Shown: positions 3,720-62,167 of the stretch, one piece after another
Numbering within the stretch: position 1 is the stretch's first letter
How the letters are laid out: each line of letters opens with the position of its first letter
NCBI GenBank assembly: GCA_963832165.1
Contig: CAWHTE010000005.1
Coordinates: 311,509-375,508 of the forward strand
Origin: an uncultured delta proteobacterium
GTDB lineage: Bacteria > Myxococcota_A > UBA9160 > SMWR01
DNA: 64,000 nt
Reading direction: 5' to 3'
Position numbers and translations under genes: made by a program
Notes under the pieces: generated by a model
Databases searched by the model: none
What the model was told of the DNA's origin: nothing
The model's input: the letters and a program-made list of their open reading frames with translations, nothing else

Positions 3720-3750
3720 GCGCCGAGTATAAGCGGGCGCCGCGCCCGCG

Positions 3751-3786
3751 AAAACGAAGCGCGGCGGAGGGAGGCCTCCGCCGCGC
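3751..3786 (-). terminator. Intrinsic terminator after pilQ
   Basis: gcgcggcggagg/cctccgccgcgc stem followed by ttcgtttt on the minus strand. Confidence 0.75.
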
Positions 3787-3818
3787 CTGGTTTCACGCCG
3801 TCCAGAGACGGCCGATCG

Positions 3819-6575: not shown

Positions 6576-7154
6576 CCCCCCTCGTTCCGACGCATCCGCA
6601 TCTCAACGTCCTTGGTCGTTTCCTGACCCAGGTAATCGACATAGGTTTCTTTCACGACGACCGTGTTGTCATCGATCGAAATCACGTGTCCGCGGTTCTT
6701 CCCGATCGCGGCGCCGGCTCCGATGATGTACGACTCGCCCGACGGATCCTCGACCAGCGCGCGCGCGTTGCCCGTGCGCCACACGACCGCGACCACCTCG
6801 AGCTGCGAGAGATCGAACTGGCCGAGCGGGCCCGCCTCCGCGACCGCCTGCATCTTGTCCGGGCGGTCCCAGACGAAGCTGCGGAACGGGTCGCGCTTGC
6901 CGGTCGCGTCGTAGGCATAGCCGGTCTCGATCTGCGCCACACCCGAGATCGGATCGATCGCGGGCTCCGCCACGCGGCTTGACCGCGGGCGGCGCCACGG
7001 CCCGTGCCGTGTGCGTGACCGTGGCTTCCTCGCGCGCCTGCGCAAACTCGTTGGCCGTGAGGCCGGCCGGCGGCTGCTCGGTGCAGCCGATCGCGGTCCC
7101 GAGTGAGGCCACCGTCGCGAGCGCCCAGAACGAGCTTCTGCGTCGTTTCGTCAT
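6572..7154 (-). CDS. pilP: PilP lipoprotein (one frameshift near 6980)
   Basis: Lipoprotein signal (AIGC) in one frame; YDATGKRDPF...PLGQFDLSQL in another. Confidence 0.85.
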
Positions 7155-7164
7155 GCCCCTCGCC

Positions 7165-7755
7165 TCAGCTCTTGCTCACGAAGCGGAAGGTGGTCGCGGT
7201 GCCCGACACGACCAGACGCGTCTCGGCCGCCGAGGACGACGCCACCTTCATGTCCAGCGCACCCAAGTTCACGATGCGCGGGAGTCGCGAGACGGAATCG
7301 AAGAATCGCGCGATCTCGTGATAGGTCCCCTCGATCTGCACCGAGATCGGGACCTCCGCGTAGAAGTCGTGGACCTGCTCGTTCTCGCGCTTGAACGACT
7401 TGATCTCGACGCCGGCCGTCTTGCCCAGGTTGCTGATGTCGGCCAGCAGCACCTCGAGCTGCTTCTCGTTCGGAAGCTGGCGCAGCGCCACCCCGAGCTG
7501 AGCCTCGAGCTGCGTGATCTCCGCTTCGAACGCATGGATGTTCGCGGCGATCGTGCGAACTTCGGAGAGCTTGCGCTGGAGCTCGAGCTCCTGCGCGCGC
7601 AGGCCGGTCAGGCGCTCGTGCTCGGCCTGGTAGTACCCGAAGTAGTAGAGCGCGCCGATCAGCAGCGCGACGCCCAGCAGGATGCCCGCGCGCGCGCCGC
7701 GCGAGAGCTTCGCGAGTTGATCGAGCTGAGACTGGAGTCCGGGAGATACTTCCAT
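7165..7755 (-). CDS. pilO: Pilus alignment protein PilO
   Basis: LPNEKQLEVLL, FYAEVPI, GTYHEIARFFD motifs; ATG 7755. Confidence 0.9.
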   Translation of the reverse strand: MEVSPGLQSQLDQLAKLSRGARAGILLGVALLIGALYYFGYYQAEHERLTGLRAQELELQRKLSEVRTIAANIHAFEAEITQLEAQLGVALRQLPNEKQLEVLLADISNLGKTAGVEIKSFKRENEQVHDFYAEVPISVQIEGTYHEIARFFDSVSRLPRIVNLGALDMKVASSSAAETRLVVSGTATTFRFVSKS

Positions 7756-7766
7756 GGCGTCCTCGT

Positions 7767-8389
7767 CTAGCCCTGCTTCTGCGAGGCCGGCGCAGTCGCG
7801 GGAGCCGGCGCTGCGGGAGCGCCCGGCGCCGCCTGCGCGGTCTGCGGCGCGACCATCGTCGCCTGGATCCGGAACTTCACGACCTTGAGGCCGTCGGGGC
7901 CGTTCCCGAGCTCGGTGCTGTTCGAGATCCACGTTGGCGAAGTACGGCGAGTCACCGAGCGAGCCCAGGAACACCGCCACGAGCTCGTTGTCGAGGCTCT
8001 GGCCGGTGATCTCGATCTGGGTGCCCTTGGTCGAGATGGCGTCGAGCCACACGCGCTCGGGCGTGTGCGTGGCCAGCTCGTCCATCACCCGCACCGGGCC
8101 CTTGCGCGCGCGGTCGAGGCCCGCGATCACGTCGATCTTCTTCTGCAGCTCGGCCTTCTTGGCGCGGAACGCGGCCACCTGATCGAGCTGCGGCTGGAAC
8201 TTCGCGATGTCGTTCTGCATCTGCGCGATGCGGTTCGTCGTCGTCTCGATCTGCCCGCTGAGATCGGAGTGCGCGAAGCCGATCAGCGCGCACGACGAGG
8301 ATCATCATCAGAACGAGCTCGAGCACGTTCTGCTTGACGTCCGCCTTGCGCTTGGTTTCGCGGACCGGAAGGAGATTGATCTGGATCAC
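7767..8389 (-). CDS. pilN: PilN (frameshifts near 8290 and 7920)
   Basis: MIQINLLP start; P-x-x-VWL and SPYFANVDL motifs split over three ORF segments. Confidence 0.85.
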
Positions 8390-9462
8390 CGGGCCTCCTC
8401 CCGCAGGGCGAGTCCCACTCCGACGCCCAGCGCGGGCGCGAGGTCATCGAGATAGTCCGGCTCGTAGCGGCTCGACGGGAGCATCCGCGTGAGCGGATTC
8501 AGCACCGCCACCGCGAGGCCGGTGCGGTCGTGGAAGGCCTTCGCGAAGCCGGACACCTTCGAGGCGCCGCCCGCGAGGTAGACCTTCTCGATCCGGCTGT
8601 CGGCGCTCGTCGCGCCGTAGAAGTCGAGCGAGCGGCTGATCTCGCCGATCACGGTCTCGGTCACGCTCTGGATCGCCTGCTCGACTTCCTGCGGCACCAC
8701 GTCCTGGCTGCCGCTCTTGCGTCCGCCGAGCTTGATCCGCTCCGCTTCGCTGAAGCTGATCGAGAGCGCCTTCTGGATCTCTTCGGTGTACTGGTTGCCC
8801 GCGGTCGTGATGTCGCGCGTGAAGCACGGCACGCCGCCCGCGACGATGTTGATGTTGACGACCTGCGCGCCCACGTTCACGAGCGCGACGGTCGAGCCGC
8901 GCGACTCGGCGTAGTTGGCCTCGAACGCGTTCTCCACGGCGAAGGCCGCGACGTCGATCGCCACCGGCACGAGGCCCGCCTCGTGGATCACCTGCACGTA
9001 GTCGTCGATCAGGTCCTTCTTCGCGGCGACGAGCAGGACCTCCATCTGACCCTCGTCGTTGCCTCCGCCGAGGATCTGGAAGTCGAGGTTCACCTCGTTG
9101 ACGTCGAACGGGATGTACTGCTCCGCTTCCCAGCGGATCTGCTCGTCGAGCTCCTCGCGGCTCATCGCGGGAAGGCTCACCTTCTTCACGATCACCGAGT
9201 GGCCCGACACCGCGGCCGCGACGTTCTTGGTCTTGATCTTGCCGTTGTCGATCGCCTCGCGGATCGCCTCGGTGATCGCGCTCGCGTTCAGGAACGCGCC
9301 CTGCACGATCGCCTCGGCGGGCACGTTCGCGACGCCGAGGTGCGACAGCTCGAAGCCGCCCGAGCGGCCCTTCATCGTGAGCTCGACGGCCTTGATCGTG
9401 GACGAGCCGACGTCGAGTCCGACGATCGATCGGGAGTTGAAACGCGGAAGGCTGAATTTCAC
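8386..9462 (-). CDS. pilM: Pilus assembly actin-like protein PilM
   Basis: VGLDVGSSTIK, EAEQYIPF, LAGGASK; GTG start 9462 with GGGGAG RBS. Confidence 0.95.
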   Translation of the reverse strand: MKFSLPRFNSRSIVGLDVGSSTIKAVELTMKGRSGGFELSHLGVANVPAEAIVQGAFLNASAITEAIREAIDNGKIKTKNVAAAVSGHSVIVKKVSLPAMSREELDEQIRWEAEQYIPFDVNEVNLDFQILGGGNDEGQMEVLLVAAKKDLIDDYVQVIHEAGLVPVAIDVAAFAVENAFEANYAESRGSTVALVNVGAQVVNINIVAGGVPCFTRDITTAGNQYTEEIQKALSISFSEAERIKLGGRKSGSQDVVPQEVEQAIQSVTETVIGEISRSLDFYGATSADSRIEKVYLAGGASKVSGFAKAFHDRTGLAVAVLNPLTRMLPSSRYEPDYLDDLAPALGVGVGLALREEAR

Positions 9463-9488
9463 GATGAGATCTCCCCGGGACGCGAGTC

Positions 9489-9740
9489 TCAGGTCTGGTT
9501 CTCGTGCATGGACAGGAGCGCGGCCGCGATCGGCGCGTCGGTGCGCATGCCGAACACGCGGTCCTTGTCGCTGATGCGAAGACCGAGCGCGAGGAGCACC
9601 TTGCGCTTGGTGTCGAGGCGGCACGGACGTCCCGCCTCCACGCGATCGATCGTCAAGGTCGACAGGCCCGCCTTGCGAGCCAGCTCCGCTTTGCTCATCA
9701 TCAGAGCTTCGCGATATCGCTGCACGTTGTTGCTCGGCAC
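9489..9740 (-). CDS. Small XRE-family HTH protein upstream of pilM
   Basis: NNVQRYREALMMSKAELARKAGLSTLTIDRVEAG; GTG 9740 with GAGGGGG RBS. Confidence 0.85.
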   Translation of the reverse strand: MPSNNVQRYREALMMSKAELARKAGLSTLTIDRVEAGRPCRLDTKRKVLLALGLRISDKDRVFGMRTDAPIAAALLSMHENQT

Positions 9741-9802
9741 TCTCCCCCTCCAGCAACCCTGCATCCGCACCTTTTTCCGAGCACGGCAAAAGGACTTCGC
9801 TC

Positions 9803-9830
9803 GTATCGGCGCGAGGTTTGGGCGACTTGA
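9803..9830 (-). promoter_or_regulatory. Candidate sigma28-type promoter for HTH-pilMNOPQ
   Basis: TCAA-N16-GCCGATAC. Confidence 0.65.
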
Positions 9831-9914
9831 GACTGCTTGCTCACTCTGCGCAAGCGCGCGCGTAGGCGGGCTGCGGGCAACTACTGCGCAGCAGGCCAGC
9901 AGCCCGGGATGCAC

Positions 9915-9942
9915 TCACGCAGCGCGCAGGGCGATCCGATAT
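9915..9942 (+). promoter_or_regulatory. Candidate sigma28-type promoter for the degenerate EBP
   Basis: TCAC-N16-TCCGATAT, 7 nt before GTG 9950. Confidence 0.45.
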
Positions 9943-9949
9943 CCCCACG

Positions 9950-11266
9950 GTGGCTGCCCGCATCCTGATCATCGACAGCGACCCTGCCGCCTGGGCGGAG
10001 GTCCAGCGCGCACTCGAGGCCGCGGGGTGTGAAGTGGTTTGCGCAGCCGGCACGCCCGCCGCGCTCGCGGCGCTCGACGGGTCGCGCTTCGATCTCGTGC
10101 TGTGCGACTGGCGCATGCCGTTTCGGGAGGGCTCACCGCTCGCGGCCGAGCTGACGCGGCGCCTGCCCGATGGCCGCTGCGTGATGACCTCGGACGAGGG
10201 GCTCGACGCGCTCGCCGCCGAGGCGATCGCGCGCGGCTGGGCCGAGGTGCTCGCGCTTCCCACGCCGGCCGCCGCGGTGCTGCTCGCGCTGCGCCGCGCG
10301 CGCGAACGCCAGCGCCTGCGCCGGCGCGCATCGCTCTTCGAGGAGGACCTCGCGCGCGCCGCGGGCGATCGGCCGATCGTCGCGGCGTCGCCAGTCATGA
10401 TCGACCTGCTCGAGGAGCTCGAACGGGTCGCAGTCGCGCGCAGCGCGGTGCTGCTCACGGGCGAGCCCGGGAGCGGCCGCGAGGGCATCGCGCGCGCGAT
10501 CCACTCCCAGTCGCCGCGCCGCGGCGGATCGTTCGTCGCCGTGAACTGCGCGCACGGGTCCGATCGCGAGCGCGAGTACCGCCTGTTCGGCAGCGGCCGC
10601 AGCTCGGCACCCGGTTCTGCACTCGCGGACGCGCACGGCGGCACGCTCTACCTCGATACGATCGATGCACTCCCTCTGCCGCTGCAGACACGCCTCGTCA
10701 GCGCGCTGCGCGACGCCGAGTCGGCCAGCGCTTCGGAGGGCGCCAAACCCCGCGCGATCGCCTCGACGCGCGCCGATCTCGACGAGCTCGTGCGGCGCGG
10801 CGCGTTCTGGAAGGAGCTCTACGAGCTGCTGCGCGAGGTCCACCTGCGCGTTCCCCCGCTGCGCGAGCGGCGCGAGGACATCCCGTTGCTCGTCGACCAT
10901 TTCCTCGCGCGCGCGGCCGCCGCACGCGGCCGCACCCAGCTCACGGTCACGGGCGACGCGCTCGACGTGCTCATCGCCTATCGCTGGCCCGGGAACGTGC
11001 GCGAGCTCGCCGCGGTGCTCGAGCACGCCGCAGACCTCTCGGCCGAGGACTCGATCTCCGCGCGCGAGCTGCCCGACGACCTCACGCACGGGCCCGAATC
11101 CGGGAATCCCTTCGCGCTGCGCGCCGCGCGGCGCGCGTTCGAGATCGACCTGATCCGCCGGACTCTGCGCGCAACCGCGGGCAACCGGACCCGGGCCGCG
11201 CGACTGCTCGAGATCAGCCACCGAGCGCTGCTGTACAAGCTCAAGGAGCTCGAGATCCGCGATTAG
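9950..11266 (+). CDS. Degenerate NtrC-type regulator (REC-AAA+-Fis HTH), PilR2-like
   Basis: WPGNVREL and Fis HTH present; Walker A GEPGSGRE, no GAFTGA, Walker B LYLDT. Confidence 0.8.
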   Translation: MAARILIIDSDPAAWAEVQRALEAAGCEVVCAAGTPAALAALDGSRFDLVLCDWRMPFREGSPLAAELTRRLPDGRCVMTSDEGLDALAAEAIARGWAEVLALPTPAAAVLLALRRARERQRLRRRASLFEEDLARAAGDRPIVAASPVMIDLLEELERVAVARSAVLLTGEPGSGREGIARAIHSQSPRRGGSFVAVNCAHGSDREREYRLFGSGRSSAPGSALADAHGGTLYLDTIDALPLPLQTRLVSALRDAESASASEGAKPRAIASTRADLDELVRRGAFWKELYELLREVHLRVPPLRERREDIPLLVDHFLARAAAARGRTQLTVTGDALDVLIAYRWPGNVRELAAVLEHAADLSAEDSISARELPDDLTHGPESGNPFALRAARRAFEIDLIRRTLRATAGNRTRAARLLEISHRALLYKLKELEIRD

Positions 11267-11287
11267 GCGCGGAAGCGCCGCGAACGG

Positions 11288-12700
11288 CTACTCCGGCTCG
11301 TCCTCGCCGCCCGCGCTGGGCTCCTCGAGGCCGAGCTTCTCGAGCCGGTAGCGGAACGAGCGGAACGAGATCCCGAGCCGCTGCGCAGCGCGCTTCTTCA
11401 CGCCCCCGCATTGGTCGAGCGCCTCGACCAGGAGGCCCCGCTCGTAGTCTGCGAGCACGCTCTCGAGGGAGATCCCTTCCGCGGGCAGCCGATCGCGCCC
11501 CGATCCGCTCCGCGCGCGCACCACGGTGGGCGGGAGCACCTCGACGCCGATCTCCCCGCCGCGCGAGAGCGCCACGGCGCGCTCGATCACGTTCTCGAGC
11601 TCGCGCACGTTGCCGGGATAGTCGTAGGCCACGAGCTTCTCGAGCGCCGCGTCGCTCACGCGCTGCACTTCGCGACCGAGCTCGCTCTCGTACTTCGCGA
11701 CGAAGTGCGCGACGAGCAGCGGGATGTCCTCGCGCCGATCGCGGAGCGGAGGCAGCTCCACTTCGATCACGTTCAGGCGGTAGTAGAGGTCCTCGCGGAA
11801 GCGCCCGCCCGCCACCTCCTCCTCGAGCCGGCGATTGGTCGCGGCGACCAGCCGCGCGTCGAAGCGGATGTCGGAAGTGCCCCCGACGCGCCGGAACGTG
11901 CGCTCCTGGATCACGCGCAGGAGCTTCACCTGGAGCGGCAGCGAGAGCTCGCCGATCTCGTCGAGGAAGACCGTGCCCGCGTGCGCGGTCTCGAACAGGC
12001 CCGGCTTGCTGTTCACCGCGCCCGTGAACGCGCCCTTCACGTGGCCGAACAGCTCCGACTCGAGCAGGTTCTCGGGGATCGCGCCGCAGTTGACCGCGAC
12101 GAACGGGCTGTCGCGCCGCTCGCTGCCATCGTGGATCGCGCGCGCGGCGATCTCCTTGCCGGTGCCGCTCTCGCCCGAGATGAGTACGTTCGCCTTGGTC
12201 GCGGCCACCTGTGCGATCAGGTCCACGACGCGTTGCATCACCGCGCTCGTGCCGATCAGGTGGCGTTCGCGGGTTCGGCTGCGCAGCTCGCTGCGCAGGC
12301 GGCGGTTCTCGCTCGACAGCGACTTCTTCTCGATCGCCTTCTCGACGATCAGCCGGATCGCGTCGACCTTGAACGGCTTGGTGATGTAGTCGTAGGCGCC
12401 TTCCTTCATCGCTGCGATCGCGGTCTCGGTGGTCGCGAACGCCGTCATCACGATCACGAGCGTCTCGGCGCCCGAATCCTGGCGCGCGTGCACGTCGCGC
12501 AACAGCTCGAGGCCGCTGCCGCCCGGCATCTGGAGGTCGGTGATCACGAGATCGAAGTCGTCGTGCTCGAGCGCGACACGCGCGGCGGCGACGTCGCCGA
12601 CCGTCACCGCGTCATAGCCCTCGCTGCGCAGGAAGATCTCCAGGAACTCCTGCATGCTCTGCTCGTCGTCGACGACGAGGACCCGCGCGCGCGCGCTCAC
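11288..12700 (-). CDS. pilR: Sigma54-dependent response regulator PilR
   Basis: REC domain, [17 protein letters not shown]; follows pilS. Confidence 0.9.
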   Translation of the reverse strand: MSARARVLVVDDEQSMQEFLEIFLRSEGYDAVTVGDVAAARVALEHDDFDLVITDLQMPGGSGLELLRDVHARQDSGAETLVIVMTAFATTETAIAAMKEGAYDYITKPFKVDAIRLIVEKAIEKKSLSSENRRLRSELRSRTRERHLIGTSAVMQRVVDLIAQVAATKANVLISGESGTGKEIAARAIHDGSERRDSPFVAVNCGAIPENLLESELFGHVKGAFTGAVNSKPGLFETAHAGTVFLDEIGELSLPLQVKLLRVIQERTFRRVGGTSDIRFDARLVAATNRRLEEEVAGGRFREDLYYRLNVIEVELPPLRDRREDIPLLVAHFVAKYESELGREVQRVSDAALEKLVAYDYPGNVRELENVIERAVALSRGGEIGVEVLPPTVVRARSGSGRDRLPAEGISLESVLADYERGLLVEALDQCGGVKKRAAQRLGISFRSFRYRLEKLGLEEPSAGGEDEPE

Positions 12701-14389
12701 GACGCGACCTCTGCGTTCGGAAGCAAGAGGCAGAACGCGGTCCGGAACGCGCCTGCGCGCCGCTCGACGCGCACGAGCCCGTGGTGCTCCGCGACGACGC
12801 GGTGCACGATCGCGAGACCCAGACCGGTACCGCCGGCTTTGGTCGTGAAGAACGGATCGAACACGCGATCCACGATTTCCTTGGGAATGCCGACACCCTG
12901 ATCCATCACGGTGATCTCGGCCCACACGGGTTTCTTCTCGTCCATTCGGCCCGGGAAGCGCTCCCCTTGAGCCGCCCCGCGGCGAGACGGCCGCGCCTCG
13001 ATGCGCAGGGCGCCGCCGTCGGGCATCGCCTGCGCCGCGTTCACGAGCAGGTTCCAGAGCACCTGGCGGAGCTGACCCGGGTCCGCGTGGACGGCGAGCC
13101 CCGCGTGCAGATCGCATTCGACCCCCACCGCCGCGGGGCGCGCGGCCTCGAACATCTCGAGCACCTCGCCCACGAGGTCGGCCAGCGTCACGCGCTCGAT
13201 GCGCGGCTCGCCCGGCCGCGCGAACGAGAGGAAGTCGGTGATCAGCCCGTCGAGCCGGTCGACCTCGCGCAGCACGATCCCCATCAGCCGGTCCGAGTCG
13301 ACGCGGCCTCCGGGGCCGTCCGACTTCATCATCTGGATCGAGCCCGAGATCGCCGCGAGCGGGTTGCGAATCTCGTGCGCGATGCTCGCGGACAGCTCGC
13401 CGACCGCGGCCAGCCGCTCGGAGCGGCGCAGCTCGCGCTCCATCGCCACGACGTCGGTGACGTCCTGGAAGATCACCACCTCGCCCGCCGCAGCGTTCGA
13501 GGCGTCGCGCAGCACGTAGGCGCCGATGCCGAGATGCAGCGAGCTCCCTTCCGGCCCCGCGAACACCATGCGCGCGCGCGCGCCAGGCTCGCTCGGGTGC
13601 GCGCCCGGGAAGCAGCGAGCGCACGCCCGGAAGCACCTGCTCGACGTCGCGCCCGAGCGCTTCGGTGCGCGCGAGCCCGGTGATCCGCTGCGCCTCCTGG
13701 TTGAACGAGGTGACGCGGCCCTCGAGGTCGGTGGTGAGCAGCCCGCTCTTCAGGCTCTCCACGGTGCGCTGGTGCAGCGTGCGGAGCTGCTCGAGGTCCT
13801 GCGTGCGCTCGGCGAGCGCGGTGCCCGTGCGCATGAGCTCGCGCGCGAGGAAGCCCGAGAGCCCGGATGCGCCGAACAGAGCCGAAGCGTGGACCGCCCA
13901 GCTCGTGAACAGCACCGCGAACGGCTCGGAGCCGAGCGCGGGTCCGAGCCAGCCGCGGTGGCCGAGCAAGAGCACGCAGGCGTAGGCGAGCGTCCCCGCG
14001 CTCGCGCACGCGAGCGCACCCACGCCCGGGAACAGCACACCCGCGTACAGCCCCACGGCGACGTACAGAAACGTGAACACCGAATCCTTGCCGCCCGAGA
14101 ACAGCACGAGCGCCGATACCAGCGCGAGGTCGGTGGCCACGTTGATTGCCGCGAACGCGCGCGGGCGCTCGATCCGGCCCACGAGCGGCCGGTACACGAG
14201 CGTCGCGACGAAGCACAGCGCAACGGCGACGTAGAAGCCGGGCCACTGCGTCGCGGGCGTCTCGCGCCCGATCGCATCGAGCGTGATGCCGATCGCGAGA
14301 CCGCCGATCGCGAGCGCGAGCCGCGATGCCATCAGCACGAGCAGCACCCGCTCGACCCGAGGGTCGCGGTTCGGCCAGCGCGAGCTCAC
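12697..14389 (-). CDS. pilS: Sensor histidine kinase PilS (frameshift near 13600)
   Basis: Multi-TM N-terminus, PAS, AHEIRNPL, FDPFFTTK, GTGLGL. Confidence 0.85.
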
Positions 14390-14432
14390 CTGCTCCGCCC
14401 TCCCGTTCCGGATCCCCGCTCCTGCGCGTCGC

Positions 14433-15648
14433 TCAGCCGATCGTGTCCGCGATCTTGAAGATCGGCAGGTACATCGCGATCAGCAGGCCGCCGACCGTGC
14501 CGCCGAGGAACACCATCATCAGCGGCTCGAGCATCGCGGTGAGCGCCTCGACCGCCGCGTCGACCTCTTCGTCGTAGAAGTCGGCGATCTTCGAGAGCAT
14601 CGTGTCCATCGCGCCGGTCTGCTCACCGACCGCGATCATCTGCACGACCATGCCCGGGAACACGTCCGACTCCGCGAGCGGCTCCGCGATCGTCTTGCCC
14701 TCGGTGATCGCCGCGCGCACCTTCCGGAGCGCCTCCTCGATCACCATGTTGCCGGCCGTGCGCGCGACGATGTCGAGCGCGTCGAGGATCGGCACGCCCG
14801 ACGAGATCATCGTGCCGAGCGTGCGCGTGAAGCGCGCGACGGCCACCTTGCGCAGCAGCGGGCCGAACACGGGCATCTTCAGGAACGATCGCGTCGGTCG
14901 CGCGGCGGAACTTCAGGTTCTTGCGGCGCGCCGTCATGAACGCGATGAACGAACCGACGAGTACGACCATGAACAGCGCGATCCAGTCCTGCATGAAGTG
15001 CGAGAGCTCGATGACGAACTGCGGTCGGGCCCGGGCAGCTCGCCGCCGAAGTCCGCGAACATCTTCTCGAAGATCGGGATGACCTTGATCAGCATCAGGA
15101 CCACGACGCCGATCGCGACGACGAGCACGGTGGTCGGGTAGACCATCGCGCCCTTGACCTGGCGCTTCGAGCGCGTCCGCCTTCTCGATGTAGACGGCGA
15201 GGCGGTTCAGGATCGTGTCGAGGATGCCGCCGATCTCGCCGGCCTGGACCAGGTTGACGTAGAGGTCGTCGAAGAGCTTCGGGTGCTTGCGCAGCGCGTC
15301 GGCGAAGGTCGAGCCCTGCTCGACGTCCGCCTTCACCTCGCGAATGATCGCCTTGAAGGTCTTGTTCGGCTGCTGGTTGCCGAGGATGTCGAGGCACTGC
15401 ACGAGCGGCAGGCCGGCGTCGATCATCGTCGCGAACTGGCGGGTGAAGATCACGAGCTCGCGGGTCTTGATGCCCTGCTTGAGGAACGGCAGGTACTCGC
15501 TGAGGTCCTTCGACTTCTCCTTGACCGTGACGGGCAGGAGCAGCTGCGAGCGAAGCTGCGCCATCACGGCGGCTTCGTTCATCGCCTCGATCTCGCCCTT
15601 CTTCAGCTTCCCGGTGCGGGTCCGCGCTTTCCACTGAAAGATCGGCAT
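14433..15648 (-). CDS. pilC: Platform protein PilC (frameshifts ~15165, ~15025, ~14885)
   Basis: [40 protein letters not shown]. Confidence 0.9.
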
Positions 15649-15685
15649 CGCCCTCTACTCCTCCGCTCTCGAGTCGAGAGCCCCC

Positions 15686-16805
<1,120 letters not shown>

Positions 16806-16822
16806 CGAATCCGACTCCTGGC

Positions 16823-18532
<1,710 letters not shown>

Positions 18533-18606
18533 AACCCCCCCGCGCGCCAGCCGTGCAGTCCCAGCGGAGCTGCGCGAGCGCGCAATTCTGCCGAGATGCC
18601 GCAGAG

Positions 18607-18634
18607 ATATCGGTCCGCGGAGCAGTGACCTTTA
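18607..18634 (-). promoter_or_regulatory. Candidate sigma28-type promoter for pilBTCSR
   Basis: TAAA-N16-ACCGATAT. Confidence 0.65.
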
Positions 18635-18820
18635 CCGTCACCGCTCGGACGAAGTGCGCAGCCGCGCGCACGCAGGTTGCAGCCGCGGGCGAGGGTTCCA
18701 AGCGAGCTGGATTCAGATCCAGCTCATCGCAGAGTCGCGTGAAGCAGCTCCGCTTCGAGGGAAAGCCGCCCCCTTCGTTCCCTGAAAGCCAAACCAGGAG
18801 TGCCTGGGCAGTCCCGCCCC

Positions 18821-19507
18821 CTACACCGAACGTCCGGGGATCTCCTCCGGATCCAGCAACCCGCTCCCCCGCCAGCCGATAGCCAGGAGCCAGGATCGAG
18901 GTAGGGCTACCGGCGACGACTCCACGACCTGGACCGTTGGCCGTCTCTTCCAGCCATCGAACCAACGCCCCGAGGACGCCGGATCGATCCGCAAAGCACT
19001 CGAAAGAGTCCGGCCGGCCTTCGCCGCATGCCGCCGTGCGTTCAGCAGCACGTAGGCGAGCGCATTCCGCACCTCGCGTGGGGTCCGCAGCACGCGCATG
19101 TGGTAGCGATCGGCCAAGACCGGCCCCGAGCGCCCGAAGATGCGATTCACTCCTCGCGCGAGGCGCGCGCCCAACGCCTTCATTCCGCGGCCGAGAGCGT
19201 TCGCATCGGCGGCTTCGATGATCAGGTGGGCGTGATTGCTCTGGAGTGAGTAGTGAACCAGCCGAAAATCGTCGCGCTCACAGCCGGCAGCGAAGCTCCG
19301 CTCGAGTTCGCGCACCAGCCGGACCGTGCGCAGCGAAGGAATTCCTTCGCGGACCTTCAGGGTCACGTGACACGGTAGACGATGCGCGAACGCGCCGCGC
19401 GATCGATGCCGTATCCGCGGGTTCAGACCTGGCTTCCGTCCGGCGCCGGGTCTTCGACCCCCATGCCGAACCCGATCGAGCTCGAGCTGTTCCGCTATGT
19501 GACGCAT
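18821..19507 (-). mobile_element. Y1 HUH transposase, IS200/REP-associated tyrosine transposase (RAYT)-like
   Basis: HVT motif, NHAHL HUH motif, DRY and ALAYVLLN catalytic Tyr; lower GC than neighbours. Confidence 0.85.
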
Positions 19508-51493: not shown

Positions 51494-52828
51494 ATGCCCA
51501 AGACCCTGCTGCTGGCTGACGACAGCGTCACCATCCAGAAGGTGGTGGGGATCAGCTTCGCCAACGAAGACATCGAGATCACCACGGTCGACAACGGCCG
51601 CGACGCGGTGGCCAAGGCGCGCACGATCCGCCCCGACATCATCCTCGCCGACGTCGTGATGCCGGGCCTGTCCGGCTACGAGGTCTGCGAGGCCGTGAAG
51701 GCCGACCCGAACCTGCGCCACGTCCCGGTGCTCCTGCTCACGGGCACGTTCGAGGCGTTCGATCAGGCGCGGGCGACCGCGGTCGGTGCCGCAGGACACG
51801 TGGCGAAGCCGTTCGAGGCCCAGACGCTCGTGGATCGCGTGAAGCAGCTGCTCGCCGCCGCACCCGCGCCGCGCGCGAGCGCGCCGCAGTCGGCTCCCGC
51901 CGCCGCTTCGGCCTCCGTGGACGACGCATTCGATTTCTTCTCCGACGAGCCGAAGCGGGTCGTCCCCGCGCCGCCGCCCGTCCCGTCCGCGAGCGCGTTC
52001 GATCTCGACGAGCCCGACGCCGCATTCGAGTTCGGCGACGAGGACCTCGCCGAGGCGCCGCCGGCTCCCGCCGCCGCGCCCGGGCGCCGCGCCGAGGCCA
52101 CGGTCGCGATCCTGGCCGCTGCGCCGGGCGGCAGCCAGGACGACGCGTTCGAGTTCTCGTTCGATGGCAACGCCGACACGCTCGAGCCGATCGATGCCGA
52201 GGACCCGCTCGCCCACACGGCGCTGCTCGATCCCGAGGCCCACTCCGAGTTCGACGTGTCCTCCTCGGATATCGCGCCTTCGCGCGCTCCCGACTCCGCG
52301 ACGCAGCTGTTCTCGATGGACGACGACGGACCGGAGTCGCTCGCGCTCGAGGCCGAGGACGCCGAGTTCGACCTCGCCGAGCCCGAGCCGTTCGCGGCGC
52401 CCGAAGCCATGGAGCCGCTCGGCGCCGACCCGTTCGAGACCACCCTCCCCCCGATCGAGCGCGCACCGCGAGGCCAGTCCTTCGATCCGTTCGCGCGCGA
52501 GCCGTTCGAGGCGGAGCCGGTGCTGGCCGGCGAGCCGCTGTCGGCCGGCGAAGAGGTCGAGGCCGAGCCCTGGGACGACGCCTCCTACGCAGCGTCCCCC
52601 GCGCTCGAAGTGTCGTCGGCCGCGTCGGGAGCCCCCGAGCTCTCGCGCGCCGAGCTGCACGACATGCTCGAGAAGATCGCCTGGGATGCGTTCGCTCCGA
52701 TCACCGAGAAGATCGTCCGCGAGGCGATCGCGCGGATCGAGCAGGTCGCCTGGGAAGTCGTTCCGAAGCTCGCGGAGACGCTGATCCAGGAGGAGATCCG
52801 CCGGCTCAAGGGCGGAGGCTCCTCCTAA
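51494..52828 (+). CDS. romR: Polarity response regulator RomR
   Basis: LLADDSVTIQKVV receiver, long Pro/acidic linker, C-terminal IEQVAWEVVPKLAETLIQEEI motif. Confidence 0.85.
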   Translation: MPKTLLLADDSVTIQKVVGISFANEDIEITTVDNGRDAVAKARTIRPDIILADVVMPGLSGYEVCEAVKADPNLRHVPVLLLTGTFEAFDQARATAVGAAGHVAKPFEAQTLVDRVKQLLAAAPAPRASAPQSAPAAASASVDDAFDFFSDEPKRVVPAPPPVPSASAFDLDEPDAAFEFGDEDLAEAPPAPAAAPGRRAEATVAILAAAPGGSQDDAFEFSFDGNADTLEPIDAEDPLAHTALLDPEAHSEFDVSSSDIAPSRAPDSATQLFSMDDDGPESLALEAEDAEFDLAEPEPFAAPEAMEPLGADPFETTLPPIERAPRGQSFDPFAREPFEAEPVLAGEPLSAGEEVEAEPWDDASYAASPALEVSSAASGAPELSRAELHDMLEKIAWDAFAPITEKIVREAIARIEQVAWEVVPKLAETLIQEEIRRLKGGGSS

Positions 52829-55579: not shown

Positions 55580-55660
55580 GCGCGCGTAGCGAGACAAGTT
55601 TCGCGCAGCGAGCCGAAGGCGAGCGAAGACCAGAAGGAATGCCGAGCGAAGACCCATCAG
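55580..55660 (+). repeat. 42-bp repeat (55594-55636) nested within a degenerate copy of itself
   Basis: gcgcgtagcgag[acaagtttcgcgcagcgagccgaaggcgagcgaagaccagaag]gaatgccgagcgaagacc. Confidence 0.75.
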
Positions 55661-55686
55661 GTGGATACCGGAGAAGGAGCCGCCCC

Positions 55687-57744
55687 ATGAAAGACATCAA
55701 GGTCAGCGACACACACAACTTCGCGCTCGTGGGGCACGCACACGACGGAAAGACGTCGCTCGGCGAGGCGATCCTGCACGCGGCCGGCGCCACCCACGCG
55801 CTCGGCAGCGTCGTCGCGGGCACCTCGGTGCTGAACCAGCTGCCCGAAGAGAAGGAGCGCAAGTCGACGATGACGTCGTGCGTGTTCAGCTACGACGCGG
55901 GTGGCAAGCACTACTCGCTCGTCGACACGCCCGGCGATTCGAACTTCGCGGGCGACGCGCAGATCGTGCTGCAGCGCCTCGACGGCGCAGTGCTGGTCGT
56001 GTCCGCGCTGGACGGCGCACGCGTGGGCACCGATCGCTCGTACCGCTTCTGCCGCGAGCACGGAATCCCGATGGTCGCGTTCGTGAACGGTCTCGACCGC
56101 GAGCGCGCGTCGCTCGACACGGCACTCGAATCGATCGCGGCGCTCTCGGCCAAGCCCGTGCTGCTCACGCTGCCGATCGGCGAGCACGAGGGACTCCGCG
56201 GCGTGGTGGACCTGTGGACGGGCCGCGCGCACACGGCCGCGGGCGAGAGCGATCCGCCGGCCGAGCTCGCCGACGAGATCGCGGCAGCGCGCGAGAAGCT
56301 CGTCGAAGACGCCGCGGAGTGCGACGACGCGATCCTCGAGAAGTACCTCGAGGAGGGCGAGCTCTCGAGCGAGGACCTGCGCCAGGCGCTCGTCTCCGGC
56401 ACGCGTTCGGGCGCGATCCTGCCCGTGCTGTGCGGCTCCGCGACCCACGAGCTGGGAATCCGCCCGCTCCTGCACGCGATCTCGGATCTTCTGCCGTCTG
56501 CGGCGGACCGCGCGCGCGCGTTCTCGAGCGCGAGCGGTGAGGAGATCGCGGCCGATCCCGACGCACCGTTCACGGCACAGGTGATCAAGACCGCGATCGA
56601 CCGCTACACCGGCACCCTCTCGATCTTTCGCGTCGTCTCGGGCCGGATCCACCCCGACACTCCCATCCTCGACGCGACGCGCGACGGCAAGGAGCGGATC
56701 GGGAAGCTGTTCCTGATGCGCGGCAGCGAGCACGTCGAGGTGCCGGAGGCCGGCCCGGGCGACGTCATCGCGGTGGCCAAGCTCAAGCACGTTCACACGG
56801 GCGATGCGCTCACTGCGGAAAAAGGCGGTGTGGCGCTTGCCCCGATCACCATTCCCCAGGGTGTCATTTCCTATGCCATCCGCGCGAAATCAAAGGGAGA
56901 TGAGGATAAAGTCTTCACCTCGCTCGGCCGACTCGTAGAGGAGGATCCGACCCTCCAGCTCGGGCGCGATCCGTCCACCGGCGAATACCTGCTCACGGGG
57001 CGCGGAGAGCTGCACGTGCGGATGACGGTCCACAAGCTGCACCGGATGTACGGCGTCGACGTGGACCTGCGCACGCCGAAGGTCCCCTACCGCGAGACAG
57101 TCAAGAAGAAGGCCGAGAACGTCGAGGGGAAGCTCAAGAAGCAGAGCGGCGGCAAGGGAATGTTCGGAGTCTGTTACCTCACGATCGAGCCCCTGCCGCG
57201 CGGCGCGGGCATCGAGTTCTCCGACGAGATCGTCGGCGGCTCGATTCCGCGCAACCTGATCCCGGCCGTCGAAAAGGGCGTGATCGAGGCCGCGCAGGTG
57301 GGACCGCTCGCGGGCTACCCGGTCGTGGACGTGCGCGTGCGCTGCATCGACGGCAAGCACCACTCGGTCGACTCGAACGAGATGGCGTTCAAGCTCGCGG
57401 GATCGTTCGGCTTCAAGGCGGCGATCGAGGCCGCCTCGCCGACGCTGCTCGAGCCCGTGATGAACCTGCACGTGTCGGTGCCCGACCACTGCGTCGGCGA
57501 CGTGATGGGCGACCTCTCGAGCCGGCGCGGACGCGTCGGGTCCGGCGAGGCACAGGGCACCTCGCAGGTGATCGCGGCACAGGTACCGATGTCGGAGCTG
57601 CTCGAGTACGCGAGCGCGCTCACGAGCATCACGGGCGGCCAGGGCGAGTTCCACATGGAATTCTCCCACTACGACGAGGCGCCCTCACACGTCCGGGAGA
57701 AGGTGATCGCCGAGGCCCAGGCCAAGAAGAACGAAGCGTCCTGA
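55687..57744 (+). CDS. fusA2: Divergent elongation factor G paralog (EF-G II type)
   Basis: GHAHDGKT, DTPGD, NGLD, EEDPT, KQSGG, SVDSNEMAF, LLEP. Confidence 0.9.
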   Translation: MKDIKVSDTHNFALVGHAHDGKTSLGEAILHAAGATHALGSVVAGTSVLNQLPEEKERKSTMTSCVFSYDAGGKHYSLVDTPGDSNFAGDAQIVLQRLDGAVLVVSALDGARVGTDRSYRFCREHGIPMVAFVNGLDRERASLDTALESIAALSAKPVLLTLPIGEHEGLRGVVDLWTGRAHTAAGESDPPAELADEIAAAREKLVEDAAECDDAILEKYLEEGELSSEDLRQALVSGTRSGAILPVLCGSATHELGIRPLLHAISDLLPSAADRARAFSSASGEEIAADPDAPFTAQVIKTAIDRYTGTLSIFRVVSGRIHPDTPILDATRDGKERIGKLFLMRGSEHVEVPEAGPGDVIAVAKLKHVHTGDALTAEKGGVALAPITIPQGVISYAIRAKSKGDEDKVFTSLGRLVEEDPTLQLGRDPSTGEYLLTGRGELHVRMTVHKLHRMYGVDVDLRTPKVPYRETVKKKAENVEGKLKKQSGGKGMFGVCYLTIEPLPRGAGIEFSDEIVGGSIPRNLIPAVEKGVIEAAQVGPLAGYPVVDVRVRCIDGKHHSVDSNEMAFKLAGSFGFKAAIEAASPTLLEPVMNLHVSVPDHCVGDVMGDLSSRRGRVGSGEAQGTSQVIAAQVPMSELLEYASALTSITGGQGEFHMEFSHYDEAPSHVREKVIAEAQAKKNEAS
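56907..56934 (+). promoter_or_regulatory. Candidate intragenic sigma28-type promoter
   Basis: TAAA-N16-GCCGACTC preceded by an AT-rich codon patch. Confidence 0.45.
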
Positions 57745-57804: not shown

Positions 57805-58893
57805 GTGTCGATGGAACGCCAGCCCAAGAAGATCCGCCTCGCGCTCTCGCCGCAGGCGGAGAAGTACGCGCGCCGCGATGCGCCGCGCGAGGTTCGACTC
57901 ATGGCGGCGCGCGGCGCGCTGCCGCTCCAACCGGTCGAGCTCGCCACGGTGCTGTTCGCGCTCATGCACGACGAGGACGCCGAGGTGAAGTCGACAGCGC
58001 GCGACAGCCTCGAGGATCTGCCCGACGCCGTGATCGGCGCGGTGCTCACCGCGCCCGCGCACCCTGCCCTGCTCGACCACCTCGCGCGCGCGTTCTCCGA
58101 CAGCGAGGACCGCCTCGAGCGGATCGCGCTCAATCCCGCCACGGACGACCGCACGATCGCGTACCTCGCGGGCCGGCCGTTCAAGGGCGTCGTCGAGATC
58201 GTCGCGAACAATCAGCTGCGCCTGATGCGCAGCCCCCCGATCGTCGAGGCGCTCGGCGCCAATCCGATGACGGGCCGCTCGGTGATCGAGCGCATCCTCG
58301 TGTTCCTGGGCGTGCCCGCACCCGAGCGGGATGACGACGACGACGCCCCGCCCCCCACCCCCGTCGAGGAGGTGAGCGAGGAGCAGGCGCGCACCGCGCT
58401 CGAGGTGGTGCTCGGCGCGAGCTTCTCCGCACTGGTCGAGGAGCGGGCCGAGCCCGTCGACGAGAAGGAGCTCGAGCAGGGCGGCAGCCTCTACAGCCTG
58501 ATCCAGAATCTGTCCGTGTTCCAGAAGATCAAGCTCGGCCGCCTCGGCAACAAGGAGGCGCGCAGCCTGCTCGTGCGCGATCGCAACAAGATCGTCGCGA
58601 TCGCCGCGATCACGAGCCCCAAGATCACCGAGCAGGAGCTGCTCTCCGTGGCGCAGTCGCGCGCCGTCGGCGACGAGGTGATCCGCGTGATCTGCCGCAA
58701 CAAGGACGCCACGCGCAGCTACCAGATGAAGCTCGCGCTCGCGACGAACCCGAAGACGCCGCAGGCGAACGCGATGAAATTCGTGAACTATCTGCAGGAC
58801 AAGGATCTCCAGAAGCTCATGAAGAGCAAGGACGTCCCGACCGTGATCTCGACCCACGCGCGGCGCCTCCTGACGAGAAAGGGAAAGGTCTGA
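57805..58893 (+). CDS. Helical-repeat (HEAT/LRV-like) hypothetical protein
   Basis: Repeated ALNP/TNPKTP helical motifs; TGATG coupling to the next gene. Confidence 0.75.
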   Translation: MSMERQPKKIRLALSPQAEKYARRDAPREVRLMAARGALPLQPVELATVLFALMHDEDAEVKSTARDSLEDLPDAVIGAVLTAPAHPALLDHLARAFSDSEDRLERIALNPATDDRTIAYLAGRPFKGVVEIVANNQLRLMRSPPIVEALGANPMTGRSVIERILVFLGVPAPERDDDDDAPPPTPVEEVSEEQARTALEVVLGASFSALVEERAEPVDEKELEQGGSLYSLIQNLSVFQKIKLGRLGNKEARSLLVRDRNKIVAIAAITSPKITEQELLSVAQSRAVGDEVIRVICRNKDATRSYQMKLALATNPKTPQANAMKFVNYLQDKDLQKLMKSKDVPTVISTHARRLLTRKGKV

Positions 58894-59879
58894 TGGCTAA
58901 AGTCAGCCCGAGCGGCGCCGAGGTGAACGCGCGGATCGTGTACTGGGGCATCGAGGGCGCCGGCAAGCGCACGAGCCTCGCGGGCGTCTATCGCAAGCTG
59001 CGGCCCGACCACCGCGGCGACATGCGCGAGGTGCCGACGCGCTTCGATCCCTCCGTCAGCTACACGGTGCTGCCGATCGAGCTCGGCGACGTCAGCGGTC
59101 AACACACGCGGATCGAGCTGATCGCCGTGCCGGGAGCGCCCGAGCACGCGCCGACCCGCAAGCAGCTGCTCGATCAGGTCGACGGGATCGTGCTCGTAGT
59201 CGACTGCCGTCGCGAGTGCCTCGAGGAGAACCTCGCCAGCGTCGAGGAGCTCGCCAAGGCGCTCGAAGACTACGCGCGCCCGATCGACGAGATGCCGCTC
59301 GTCGTCCAGTACAACAAGCGCGACCTCGCCGATGCCTACGACGCCGACGAGCTGCACCGGCGGCTCGGGCTCGCGGGCGCGACCGTGTTCGAATCGGTCG
59401 CCACGCAGGGCACCGGTCTGCTCCAGGCGCTCTCGACGATCTCGAAGAAGGTGATCCGCGCGCTGCGCGGCGAGAGCCTCGGCTCCACGCGCGCGCCGTT
59501 CGCGGCGGAGCCCGCCGTCGCAACGCGAGCGCCCGAGCCCGTCGCCACCGAGCGCGTGATGCCCACGCCACAGCAGGCGATGGAGGAGGCGATCCTCGCC
59601 GAGGCCGATCACCCCGACATGCGCGCGATCGACGCGGAGTCGCAAGCGGCCGCAGCGGCGCTCTCCGATCAACCGTGGCTGCACGAACCCGATCCGGCCG
59701 ACGTGCGCGGCGGCGCGCGGATCGGCAGCAGCCTCACGATCGTCTCGGTCGGCGAAGCGACGCGCGCCGACGAGCGCAGCGTGCGCATCCCGCTCGTACT
59801 CGGAGACGACGAGGGAGGAACTTCGACCGTGGTGCTCACGGTGCGGATCGATCCTCTGCTCGGAGAGAGCGGAGACTGA
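58893..59879 (+). CDS. MglA-like small GTPase paralog with degenerate catalytic residues and C-terminal extension
   Basis: IVYWG..GK, VPG, VDGIVLVVD, QYNKRDL colinear with MglA. Confidence 0.85.
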   Translation: MAKVSPSGAEVNARIVYWGIEGAGKRTSLAGVYRKLRPDHRGDMREVPTRFDPSVSYTVLPIELGDVSGQHTRIELIAVPGAPEHAPTRKQLLDQVDGIVLVVDCRRECLEENLASVEELAKALEDYARPIDEMPLVVQYNKRDLADAYDADELHRRLGLAGATVFESVATQGTGLLQALSTISKKVIRALRGESLGSTRAPFAAEPAVATRAPEPVATERVMPTPQQAMEEAILAEADHPDMRAIDAESQAAAAALSDQPWLHEPDPADVRGGARIGSSLTIVSVGEATRADERSVRIPLVLGDDEGGTSTVVLTVRIDPLLGESGD

Positions 59880-62167
59880 TGCGAAAGCGGATCGGCATCT
59901 ACGGGGCCTCGGACGAGGCCCTCGCGCTGATTCCGCTGCTCAGCGCCAATCCGGCCGTCGAGATCGCGGCGGTCGTGGATCCCGATGCGCTGCAGCTGCA
60001 CGCGCGGCTGCCGCACCTTCCGCCCGGCGTCGCCGCGCTGCTCGAGCAGACGCTCACGAACGATCCGCAGGCGCTGCTCGGCGACGCGTCGCTGCACGCC
60101 GTGATCGACGCGGGCGCCGAGCGTTCGTTCGCGGAGCGCTTTCCCGCCGCGCTCGAGCGCGGCCTCCAGGTCGTATCGCCGCTCACGGCGCGTCTGCTCT
60201 GGGGATTCGGCGTGCCGTCACACGATCGCCAGGCCGACCTGCTCCAGGCGCTCCACGAGGTGGTCGAGTCCTACAACCTCACAGTCGACGCGGACGAGCT
60301 GTTCGCGCGCATGCTCGAGATCGCGATCGCGGTGACGGGCGCCGAGGGCGGCTCGCTCATGCTCGCGGACGAATCGGCCCGCGAGCTCTCGGTGCGCGTG
60401 GCCGTGGGCGTCGAGCGCGAGCTGTGGCCGAAGATCCGCGTGCCGTTCGGCGACGGGATCGCGGGCCGCGTCGCCGCGGAAGGTCGGTCGCTGCGCCTGC
60501 GCGGCAAGGCCGATCGGGCGCGGTTTCGGATCGTGCGCGAGCGGCTCGACGTGGAGTCCGCGGTGTCGGTTCCGCTCCTGCACGACGGCCGCGTACTCGG
60601 CGTGCTGAATCTGCACCACCGCACCCGCCCCGACGCGTTCGGCGAAGAGGACTTCGCGTTCACGGAAGAGCTCGCGCGGCTCGACGCGCAGATCATCGCG
60701 CGTGCGCAGGAGCACGAGGCGCTCGCTCGCCAGGCCGCACGCTATGCGGCGGTGCAGGAGGTGCGCGCGATCCTGTCCGGGCGCGAGCCGATCGCGGAGC
60801 GCCTGCGCAGGCTGTGCGAGTGGGTCGCGGCGCGCACGGGCGGCGGGATCGCGTCGATCTACCAGCTCGATCGCGCGGCGGGCGGCCTGCGCCTCGCCGC
60901 GACCACGCTCGCGAGCGGGAGCCTCGGCGGCGAGTACCGCGTCCAGCCCGGGCGCGGGATCGACGGCCGGGCCGCCCAGAGCCGCACCCCGGCCTTCCTG
61001 CGTCAGCCCGACGGTGCGGTCGCCTACGCGGCCCTCCCGCTCGTGAACGAGACAGAGCTCGTCGGTGTGCTGTCGATCCAGAGCGGCGCCGAGCCGCCGC
61101 GCGGGCGCGCTGCCGAGGAGACGCTGCTCGAGATCGCTTCGACCGCCGCGCGCGAGATCGCCGACGCCGAGCGCGCCGTGCAGATGGCCGCGCGCGCCGA
61201 GCGCACGGCCGCGATCCATGAGGCCGGGATCCGCATGATCACGACCACCGACCCCGCGGAGGTGCTGCGGCTCGGCACGTCGTCGGCCGCGATGGTGCTC
61301 GAGGCCGATCACGCCGTGCTGCGCCTGCAGGACGAGGACACCCAGCGCTTCGTGATCCGGTCCTACTTCGGATCCGCGGACGGCCGGCTCCAGGAACGGC
61401 TGTTCCGGCTCGACAAGGACGTCTCGGTCGACGTGCTGCGCCGACGCGCGCCGCGCCTCGAGCGCGAGGTGTCGGCCGATGCGCGGCTCTCGGCGCACGG
61501 CAGCGAAGTGCGCTCGCTGCTCGCCGCGCCGCTGCGCCGCGACGGGCAGCTGGTCGGAACGCTCGCGCTCTACGACAAGATCGCCGCGGACCGCTTTACC
61601 GCGGGCTCGTTCAACGACGAGGACGCCCAGCTGTTCGCACAGTTCGTGTCGTACTTCGAGCGCGCGATCGCGAACGCGGTCTTCTACGACAAAGCCCGGC
61701 GCTTCCGCAACTTCGACGAAGACACGGGACTGCCCAACGCCGCCTATCTCGCCCAGCGGGTCCGCGAGGAGACCGCGCGCGCGGGCGCGCGCGACGGTGC
61801 GTTCGCGCTCGTGGTCGTTCGAATTGCGAACTTTGCCGAGGTCGAGGCGGCCGGCGATCCCGTGAAGACGCGCCGCGTGGTCCAGACGGTGGTGGATGCG
61901 CTGCGACGCAACTCGCGCGAGTTCGACGTCCTCACGCGCTGCGAGAACGCGGAGTTCGCGCTGCTGGTCCCCGAGCCCGGCCACGACCCGGCGCAGCGCG
62001 TGCTCGACCTCGCGCGTGCGGTGTCCGAGGACGTGACGCGCGACGAGCGCGTGAACACCCCGCACCGGGTGGCGCTCGCGTTCGGCTACGCGATCCATGG
62101 CAAGGACGGACCCGACGTCCAGAGCCTGCTCGCGCGCGCGCGCGATCCGCGCATCCACATGGTGTAG
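59879..62167 (+). CDS. Rossmann-like/multi-GAF/degenerate GGDEF protein
   Basis: GDGIAGRVA and VLGVLNL GAF motifs; DEDTGLPN; REFD-VLTR-CENAEF in place of RxxD...GGDEF. Confidence 0.85.
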   Translation: MRKRIGIYGASDEALALIPLLSANPAVEIAAVVDPDALQLHARLPHLPPGVAALLEQTLTNDPQALLGDASLHAVIDAGAERSFAERFPAALERGLQVVSPLTARLLWGFGVPSHDRQADLLQALHEVVESYNLTVDADELFARMLEIAIAVTGAEGGSLMLADESARELSVRVAVGVERELWPKIRVPFGDGIAGRVAAEGRSLRLRGKADRARFRIVRERLDVESAVSVPLLHDGRVLGVLNLHHRTRPDAFGEEDFAFTEELARLDAQIIARAQEHEALARQAARYAAVQEVRAILSGREPIAERLRRLCEWVAARTGGGIASIYQLDRAAGGLRLAATTLASGSLGGEYRVQPGRGIDGRAAQSRTPAFLRQPDGAVAYAALPLVNETELVGVLSIQSGAEPPRGRAAEETLLEIASTAAREIADAERAVQMAARAERTAAIHEAGIRMITTTDPAEVLRLGTSSAAMVLEADHAVLRLQDEDTQRFVIRSYFGSADGRLQERLFRLDKDVSVDVLRRRAPRLEREVSADARLSAHGSEVRSLLAAPLRRDGQLVGTLALYDKIAADRFTAGSFNDEDAQLFAQFVSYFERAIANAVFYDKARRFRNFDEDTGLPNAAYLAQRVREETARAGARDGAFALVVVRIANFAEVEAAGDPVKTRRVVQTVVDALRRNSREFDVLTRCENAEFALLVPEPGHDPAQRVLDLARAVSEDVTRDERVNTPHRVALAFGYAIHGKDGPDVQSLLARARDPRIHMV

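Follow-up and report, generated by a model that had tools for sequence, protein, structure and literature searches.

Within the window, the whole 64,000-nucleotide stretch of DNA analysed here, the forward-strand gene at 58893..59879 encodes a candidate MglA-derived pseudo-GTPase of 328 aa, whose AlphaFold model, built from 101 orthologs, has a mean pLDDT of 87.9. The protein consists of an MglA-fold G domain (residues 1-195, 58893..59477), a Pro/Ala-rich variable linker of low pLDDT and poor conservation (residues 196-225, 59478..59567), two predicted helices (226-237 and 243-258, 59568..59666) that are missing from some short members of the family and covary with the beta domain, and a C-terminal beta domain of four strands that is typical of the family (59736..59846). 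Myxococcus xanthus MglA (PDB entry) aligns to residues 4-192 without gaps by phmmer (E 1e-31), so that MglA numbering applies directly to the ORF. The identity is about 34%, and the VPG of the G3 motif, the NKRD motif (residues 141-144 of the ORF) and the β2–β3 insertion are common to both proteins. The top Foldseek matches of the model are MglA (E 7e-20, rmsd 1.8-3.1) and the nearest named proteins are from Myxococcota.

The G domain carries a degenerate P-loop (residues 19-27, 58947..58973) with E21 (GAG), K25 (AAG) and R26 (CGC). In the switch I/β2 segment (59049..59066), where the roles of the MglA residues are described in PMC3199381, PMC6785124 and PMC11016934, P53 (CCC) replaces the arginine finger, S54 (TCC) replaces Thr, T58 (ACG) replaces the Mg2+ ligand D58 and F56 is lost, and by alignment to MglA the catalytic glutamine is replaced by A82 (GCG, 59136..59138). 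The ungapped alignment and the codons confirm the preliminary description of this gene, which listed G21E, T26R, R53P and Q82A with K25 and NKRD intact, and its C-terminal extension of ~130 aa agrees with the ~133 aa that follow the G domain. Beyond those four changes, D58T (a Walker-B-like Mg2+ ligand) and T54S were found, and F56/F59 and the switch II residues V83-F84-Y85 are also gone. Compared with Group 1 MglA, the G1 motif GxxxxGK[T/S] reads GK-R, the glutamine of the G3 motif TVPGQ is A82 and the arginine finger is P53, while the G4 motif NKxD (as NKRD) and the fold with its extra β2–β3 insertion are present. Neither the adjacent mglB and F56/F57/F59 face of a coupled MglA-MglB pair nor the conserved arginine finger of SofG-type orphan MglA is found, and the combination of a GTPase fold with degenerate catalytic motifs is that of a pseudoGTPase. 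Since G1, G2 and G3 fail while the fold and G4 are kept, the protein is placed as MglA-derived but outside the active Group 1 family.

These substitutions are not assembly errors, because contigs from other public DNA runs, one spanning 58919-59194 with two differing letters and one spanning 59098-59312 with none, and close relatives carrying the same substitutions all agree. The one RNA run was uninformative, with near-identical contigs over the upstream HEAT gene and short partial matches over the pseudo-GTPase gene, and a promoter and terminator scan gave a chance-level result.

In the window the gene overlaps both of its neighbours, also on the forward strand, by one base. Upstream lies a HEAT/LRV-like gene (57805..58893) whose stop overlaps the pseudo-GTPase start as TGATG; a HEAT gene is directly upstream in all 102 testable orthologs and the TGATG junction is found in 70 of the 103. 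Downstream, with its start overlapping the pseudo-GTPase stop, lies a gene (59879..62167) for a protein with an N-terminal domain, three GAF domains and a GGDEF fold, which is directly downstream in 91/102 testable orthologs. The GGDEF motif is absent from this protein and RxxD (61916-61927) is kept in 35/35 orthologs, a combination also described for c-di-GMP receptors, SgmT and PopA among them (PMC3509222), which makes it a candidate c-di-GMP receptor whose only I-site feature is RxxD. Its N-terminal domain has conserved acidic residues, E13 and E28. Of ten genomes without the GAF gene at this position, nine carry the pseudo-GTPase family, and in nine of the ten the GAF gene was not found elsewhere. 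A complex prediction for the pseudo-GTPase, the HEAT protein and residues 1-290 of the GAF protein scored 0.00 and carries no weight either way.

The cluster extends further upstream, again on the forward strand, through an EF-G2-like gene (55639..57744) in which Asp replaces the catalytic His, as in 41 of 42 distinct homolog matches from the fetched loci, with a variable G2 motif; canonical EF-G-like genes are located elsewhere in the same genome. At its head is a RomR-like gene (51494..52828) with a receiver, a disordered acidic linker and a conserved C-terminal helix, a label that reflects a match of architecture to the description in PMC12719032 rather than a sequence comparison with M. 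xanthus RomR. The order romR-like, nadC, birA, coaX, efg2, HEAT, pseudo-GTPase, GAF3-GGDEF is conserved across the class, with the romR-like gene at the head in 21 of the 25 loci that reach that far. As nadC, birA and coaX are housekeeping genes, being neighbours in this operon argues only weakly for a common function. The HEAT gene is present in many genomes without the pseudo-GTPase family and, in other lineages, adjoins canonical mglA or PATAN/receiver genes, neighbours that hint at a place for it in polarity control. At several loci outside the class (L201 in G298, L069 and L072 in G235 and G254, L227 in G201, L228 in G203) it directly follows canonical mglA or lies close to it, or else precedes receiver-DUF4388-TPR genes or ones like them. 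A position equivalent to that of frzS after rasA (MXAN_4149 and MXAN_4150) was considered and set aside: DUF2336, the RasA (MXAN_4150) domain, had no match in 67 HEAT members, which gave no support to orthology with RasA, and in the outside-class loci no downstream gene was recognised as FrzS-like; among 57 receiver matches found by BLAST in the genome, none was a FrzS-like pseudo-receiver with a long tail. In a locus titled Bdellovibrionota (L180), birA and the HEAT gene are clustered with a romR-like C-terminus, without the pseudo-GTPase family, which suggests that the cluster is older than the pseudo-GTPase.

The same genome encodes a conventional polarity module. The preliminary description had noted that no mglB is adjacent, and indeed no roadblock gene adjoins the pseudo-GTPase gene; the sole PF03259 match in the genome is the canonical mglB on another contig (C11), where it forms a pair with canonical mglA. 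This mglA (G000:C11:118427-119045, L104) shifts frame near codon 136, and since the mglA genes of relatives are intact, the change is likely an assembly indel. A third, orphan MglA-like paralog (G000:C5:53179-53745, L105) has R53, T54, Q82 and D58 intact, has similar copies in five other genomes of the class and is possibly the counterpart of SofG. Within the window, mglC lies at 1661-2035 and an SgmX-like TPR gene (1055 aa) runs off the start. The region 1-19000 also holds putative pil genes and an aroQ-like gene, as judged from the translations, and the pilC/pilB-like genes at ~14433-18085 look split into several ORFs.

The pseudo-GTPase belongs to a family that is widespread in its class. 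In 177 of 201 class genomes the best match reached E 1e-40 or better (counted from the match table), a level that canonical MglA stayed short of in the five class genomes for which all matches were shown. The ortholog set used throughout holds 103 proteins, one per genome: 30 from the best loci, 60 chosen for family spread among 150 matches listed, 12 from the class through other searches and one from outside the class; 32 canonical MglAs of the same phylum served for comparison. Members outside the class were found in five genomes (G238, G533, G436, G223 and G272), each directly 3' of the HEAT gene. A profile search of 400 genomes missed G436, G223, G272 and G533, the last not being in its sample, and the range given here is therefore a lower bound. 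Both the P-loop and the G4 motif are missing from the members in G223 and G272, and in these genomes (97% and 93% complete, respectively) canonical MglA and a PF03259 roadblock MglB were not found, although both have an SgmX-like match. In one genome of the same order (L090 in G007, 95% complete) searches recovered the HEAT gene but no member of the pseudo-GTPase family, no canonical MglA, no roadblock MglB, and neither the GAF gene nor the romR-like gene.

Phylogenetic analysis, which the preliminary description had proposed as a check, sets the HEAT-linked family apart from canonical MglA: in a tree of 43 rows, all 23 HEAT-linked proteins are found together on the same side of a branch supported at 97/99. 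A long branch carries the two rows that are most degenerate, and a larger quick tree is concordant. The ORF at 58893-59879 can thus be regarded, from its sequence, as the founding example of a conserved subfamily of old, vertically kept MglA paralogs. Outside the class, other long MglA-like proteins (L251-L254, L256, L257 and L271 in family f19; L270 in f32) also lack Q82 and show a changed switch I. In the tree they lie apart from the pseudo-GTPase family, so degeneration of MglA occurred more than once.

The most consistent property of the subfamily is the loss of the catalytic residues. R53 is kept in none of the 103 orthologs, Q82 in two and G21 in one, whereas each is present in 32/32 canonical MglAs; in a de-duplicated set of 235 sequences Q82 occurs in 10 and R53 in one, counts taken from the raw alignment, in which slips are possible. 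R53 provides MglA with its intrinsic arginine finger, and hydrolysis is lost or much reduced in the R53A and Q82A variants (PMC3199381), while an arginine finger beside the G2 Thr is reported to be conserved in all Group 1 members (PMC4316618). The replacements vary among the 103 orthologs (E21 in 49, R26 in 20, P53 in 92, A82 in 36), and all four occur together in three. The loss of R53, Q82 and G21 is therefore family-wide, while the exact replacements vary, and the notion of natural copies of laboratory 'locked' mutations is not supported: the family lost the catalytic machine rather than copying laboratory alleles. The MglB-binding face has eroded likewise. F56, F57 and F59, the β2 residues of MglA that bind MglB (PMC6785124), are complete in 0/103, with an aromatic kept at position 56 in six and at 59 in four, and V83/F84/Y85 of switch II are complete in 0/103 (singly kept in one, none and two). 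These losses weaken the proposed role as a decoy for MglB/C, as does the persistence of the family in G223 and G272, two genomes in which neither MglA nor a roadblock MglB turned up. Loss of catalysis throughout the family is well supported by sequence, and meaningful GTP hydrolysis is unlikely to persist.

It could be argued that the protein has remained a GTPase switch and receives its catalytic residues in trans from a GAP in the style of Rab and Rap (perhaps the HEAT protein), or that R50 acts as a shifted finger. The full binding set (GK[T/S], T/S54, D/E58 and NKxD) is kept in 43/103 (GK[T/S] in 62 and NKxD in 86), R50 is present in 72/103, and Group 1 Rup GTPases, which have no Gln, have been proposed to receive it in trans (PMC4316618). 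However, 28/103 have no Arg anywhere in positions 48-56, a residue other than Gly at 21 (102/103) would be expected, from the example of G21V (PMC3199381), to obstruct a finger, and K25 (lost in 14/103, with nine changes on the tree) and T26/D58 have been lost several times without the gene or its synteny being lost. As the explanation is also inapplicable to the fully degenerate members, it is considered improbable.

The Mg2+ site has followed a different course. The Mg2+ ligands of MglA are T26, T54 and D58 (PMC3199381, PMC6785124), D58 being the Walker B residue (PMC11016934). Among the 103 orthologs, T/S at position 26 and D/E at position 58 are both present in 73 and both absent in 27, with two and one discordant, giving a coupling (phi) of 0.93 where the next best column gives 0.46. 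On a tree built without columns 26 and 58, the two traits change seven and eight times but nine times jointly, so that six changes are shared, compared with at most three for 78 control traits. The pair is also the strongest by MI-APC (z 9.3, 235 sequences), although an independent-pairs test, with only three pairs on well-supported branches, was not significant (p 0.5). As the two ligands are kept or lost together, typical members likely still use the metal site and bind Mg-nucleotide, and nucleotide binding by such members is rated as reasonably probable. Several lineages, including that of the ORF itself (R26, T58), appear to have dismantled the site. T26R, found in 20/103 and gained or lost four times on the tree, is thus lineage-specific and accompanied by loss of D58, and because the joint loss removes the Mg2+ site it is the opposite of a GTP-locking change. 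Since Mg2+ reportedly adds little or nothing to the nucleotide affinity of MglA (PMC3199381), it is plausible that R26 provides a counter-charge in place of the metal and permits metal-free binding of guanine nucleotide; for the ORF product, the chances of nucleotide binding are evenly balanced. The sequences suggest that the family ranges from nucleotide-binding members to ones without P-loop or G4.

The same residues bear on whether the protein imitates MglA-GTP in a permanently 'on' state, as the laboratory mutants G21V and Q82A do, and engages MglA effectors, SgmX among them, at the pole. The loss of G21, R53 and Q82 would fit, Bdellovibrio MglA with its natural S21 offers a precedent (PMC3983030), the model is nearest to GTPγS-bound MglA (rmsd 1.8, a small gap from the 2.0-2.2 of GDP forms), and SgmX-like homologs persist even in the two genomes where MglA was not found. 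Such a mimic is nonetheless unlikely. With switch II and F56/F59 so rarely kept, the effector surface that responds to nucleotide does not resemble that of MglA; the Mg2+ site is removed by T26R together with D58T, and T26/27N in MglA is reported to lower its GTP affinity (PMC3000849); and the distant members are without any P-loop or G4.

The family has, by contrast with these losses, retained a basic back face. It is formed by the end of α1 (K35, R37, R41), the β2–β3 loop (L64, I67) and α5 (K185, R189, R192), and the set K35, R37, R41, R189 and R192 is complete in 84/103 orthologs and in none of the 32 canonical MglAs. K185 and L64 are each found in 102/103 and I/V/L67 in 100/103, although folding may be the reason why L64 and I67 are conserved; remnants of the face persist in the most degenerate members. 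It overlaps the MglA pocket (α5/β2–β3) that receives the acidic C-terminal helix of MglB (PMC6785124). The protein might therefore be a sink for the acidic C-terminal helix of MglB or of RomR, tuning the MglA cycle, and the near-invariant K185, L64 and I/V/L67, the extra basic residues on α5, the acidic C-terminal helix retained by the MglBs of the class and the romR-like gene at the head of the cluster can all be read in that way. Yet K181, which belongs to the helix pocket, is lost in 103/103, and members are present in G223 and G272 where canonical MglA and a PF03259 roadblock were not found, so that this role too has a low probability. Docking of the protein's own acidic helix (226-237) on the α5 pocket, in the style of the MglB helix, was also considered and dropped, because mutual information pairs the helices with the C-terminal beta domain and gives no clear pairs with the G domain.

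The C-terminal domain matched no Pfam family, no PDB sequence and no Atlas entry, and structure searches gave a best E of 0.08 (Foldseek) and a best Z of 4.0 (VIA), values that neither imply nor deny a new fold. In a search of representatives, which listed the best 150 of 244 matches, the single-stretch matches that were checked proved to belong to the family, whole or in pieces, apart from two records that look chimeric. Among the checked matches the domain occurred nowhere but at the end of a family member or fragment; giant repeat proteins match one hairpin of it only.

The sequences of the family change faster than those of canonical MglA (58% vs 82% mean identity) but under constraint, with a G-domain dN/dS of ~0.1-0.25 over 11 close pairs (simple NG86 on GC-rich DNA) against ~0.02-0.07 for three canonical pairs by the same method. 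A functionless duplicate in decay, preserved because it is linked to neighbours that are essential, for which this faster evolution and the very degenerate or lost copies of some lineages (G007) might be cited, is very improbable and largely refuted by selection, given dN/dS well below 1, reading frames intact across 11 families within the 103-genome set, the family's own near-invariant residues, the conservation of the C-terminal domain and the survival of the gene in distant lineages. The pseudo-GTPase scaffold proposed in the preliminary description is supported, with both catalytic residues absent across a conserved clade under purifying selection.

The explanation preferred here, held with moderate confidence, is a non-hydrolysing pseudo-GTPase adaptor in pilus or polarity control, with the back face and the C-terminal domain as its docking surfaces. 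The sequences show that the family has lost R53, Q82, the MglB strand and switch II while the fold, G4 and the basic back face stayed. The back face might dock an acidic partner surface, and the C-terminal domain might anchor or oligomerise the protein. Its partners would probably be the HEAT protein, to which it is translationally coupled, and also, in the majority of lineages, the GAF-GGDEF c-di-GMP receptor; with them it would serve the type IV pilus and polarity machinery, beside the canonical MglA switch, as a stationary landmark or a coupler of signals. A role in polarity or pilus control, taken by itself, is slightly favoured; the genome also has mglB/mglA, mglC, an SgmX-like TPR gene and pil genes. 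A more elaborate version remains tentative: the family would form a decay series, from Mg-nucleotide binders through metal-free binders in which arginine repeatedly took the place of the Mg2+ site to site-less members that have outlived MglA and MglB, and would act as a static polar landmark coupling the c-di-GMP receptor and the HEAT protein to the type IV pilus, in an operon with two other pseudo-enzymes (the His-less EF-G2 and the I-site-only GGDEF protein).

Compared with MglA of M. xanthus and Thermus thermophilus (PDB 6H17, 6IZW, 3T12), the ORF has the same fold, ungapped alignment and NKRD, but is without R53, Q82, G21, T26, D58, the MglB face and the switch II aromatics, is uncoupled from mglB, has an extra C-terminal domain and coexists with a canonical mglBA. 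SofG-type paralogs are likewise orphans in genomes with mglBA, but SofG keeps and needs its arginine finger (PMC4316618), and it is L105 that has R53, T54 and Q82 intact. Bdellovibrio MglA is the closest bacterial precedent. According to PMC3983030 it has a natural S21, comparable with the non-Gly residue 21 of the ORF, has no coupled MglB, and is the hub for a TPR protein (Bd2492), RomR and the degenerate GGDEF receptor CdgA, an association with a degenerate GGDEF c-di-GMP receptor that the ORF shares. However, it is described there as the sole MglA, 64% identical to that of M. xanthus and with most functional residues kept, whereas the pseudo-GTPase family is a separate clade without both catalytic residues. 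The eukaryotic pseudoGTPases (the AAGAB psGD, the p190RhoGAP domains and septin classes I-III) also combine a G fold with degenerate motifs and a proposed use as an interaction module. AAGAB is reported to interact through a non-switch surface (PMC12490416), and septins show graded, repeated decay like that of the present family (PMC10731463). They belong to unrelated lineages and have been proven inactive biochemically, whereas the bacterial family is known here from sequence.

The evidence defines a real, conserved bacterial pseudo-GTPase subfamily that is apparently undescribed, none of the literature searched, which included few subscription papers, containing a description of it. Its carriers are known here from genome assemblies. 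PseudoGTPases have so far been characterised mainly in eukaryotes, and if the interpretation is correct, a non-cycling component would join the best-studied bacterial Ras-like polarity module. The natural variants (T26/E58, R26/T58 and fully degenerate) would provide a matched set for studying the transition from GTPase to scaffold, and the same variants bear on whether an arginine can replace Mg2+.
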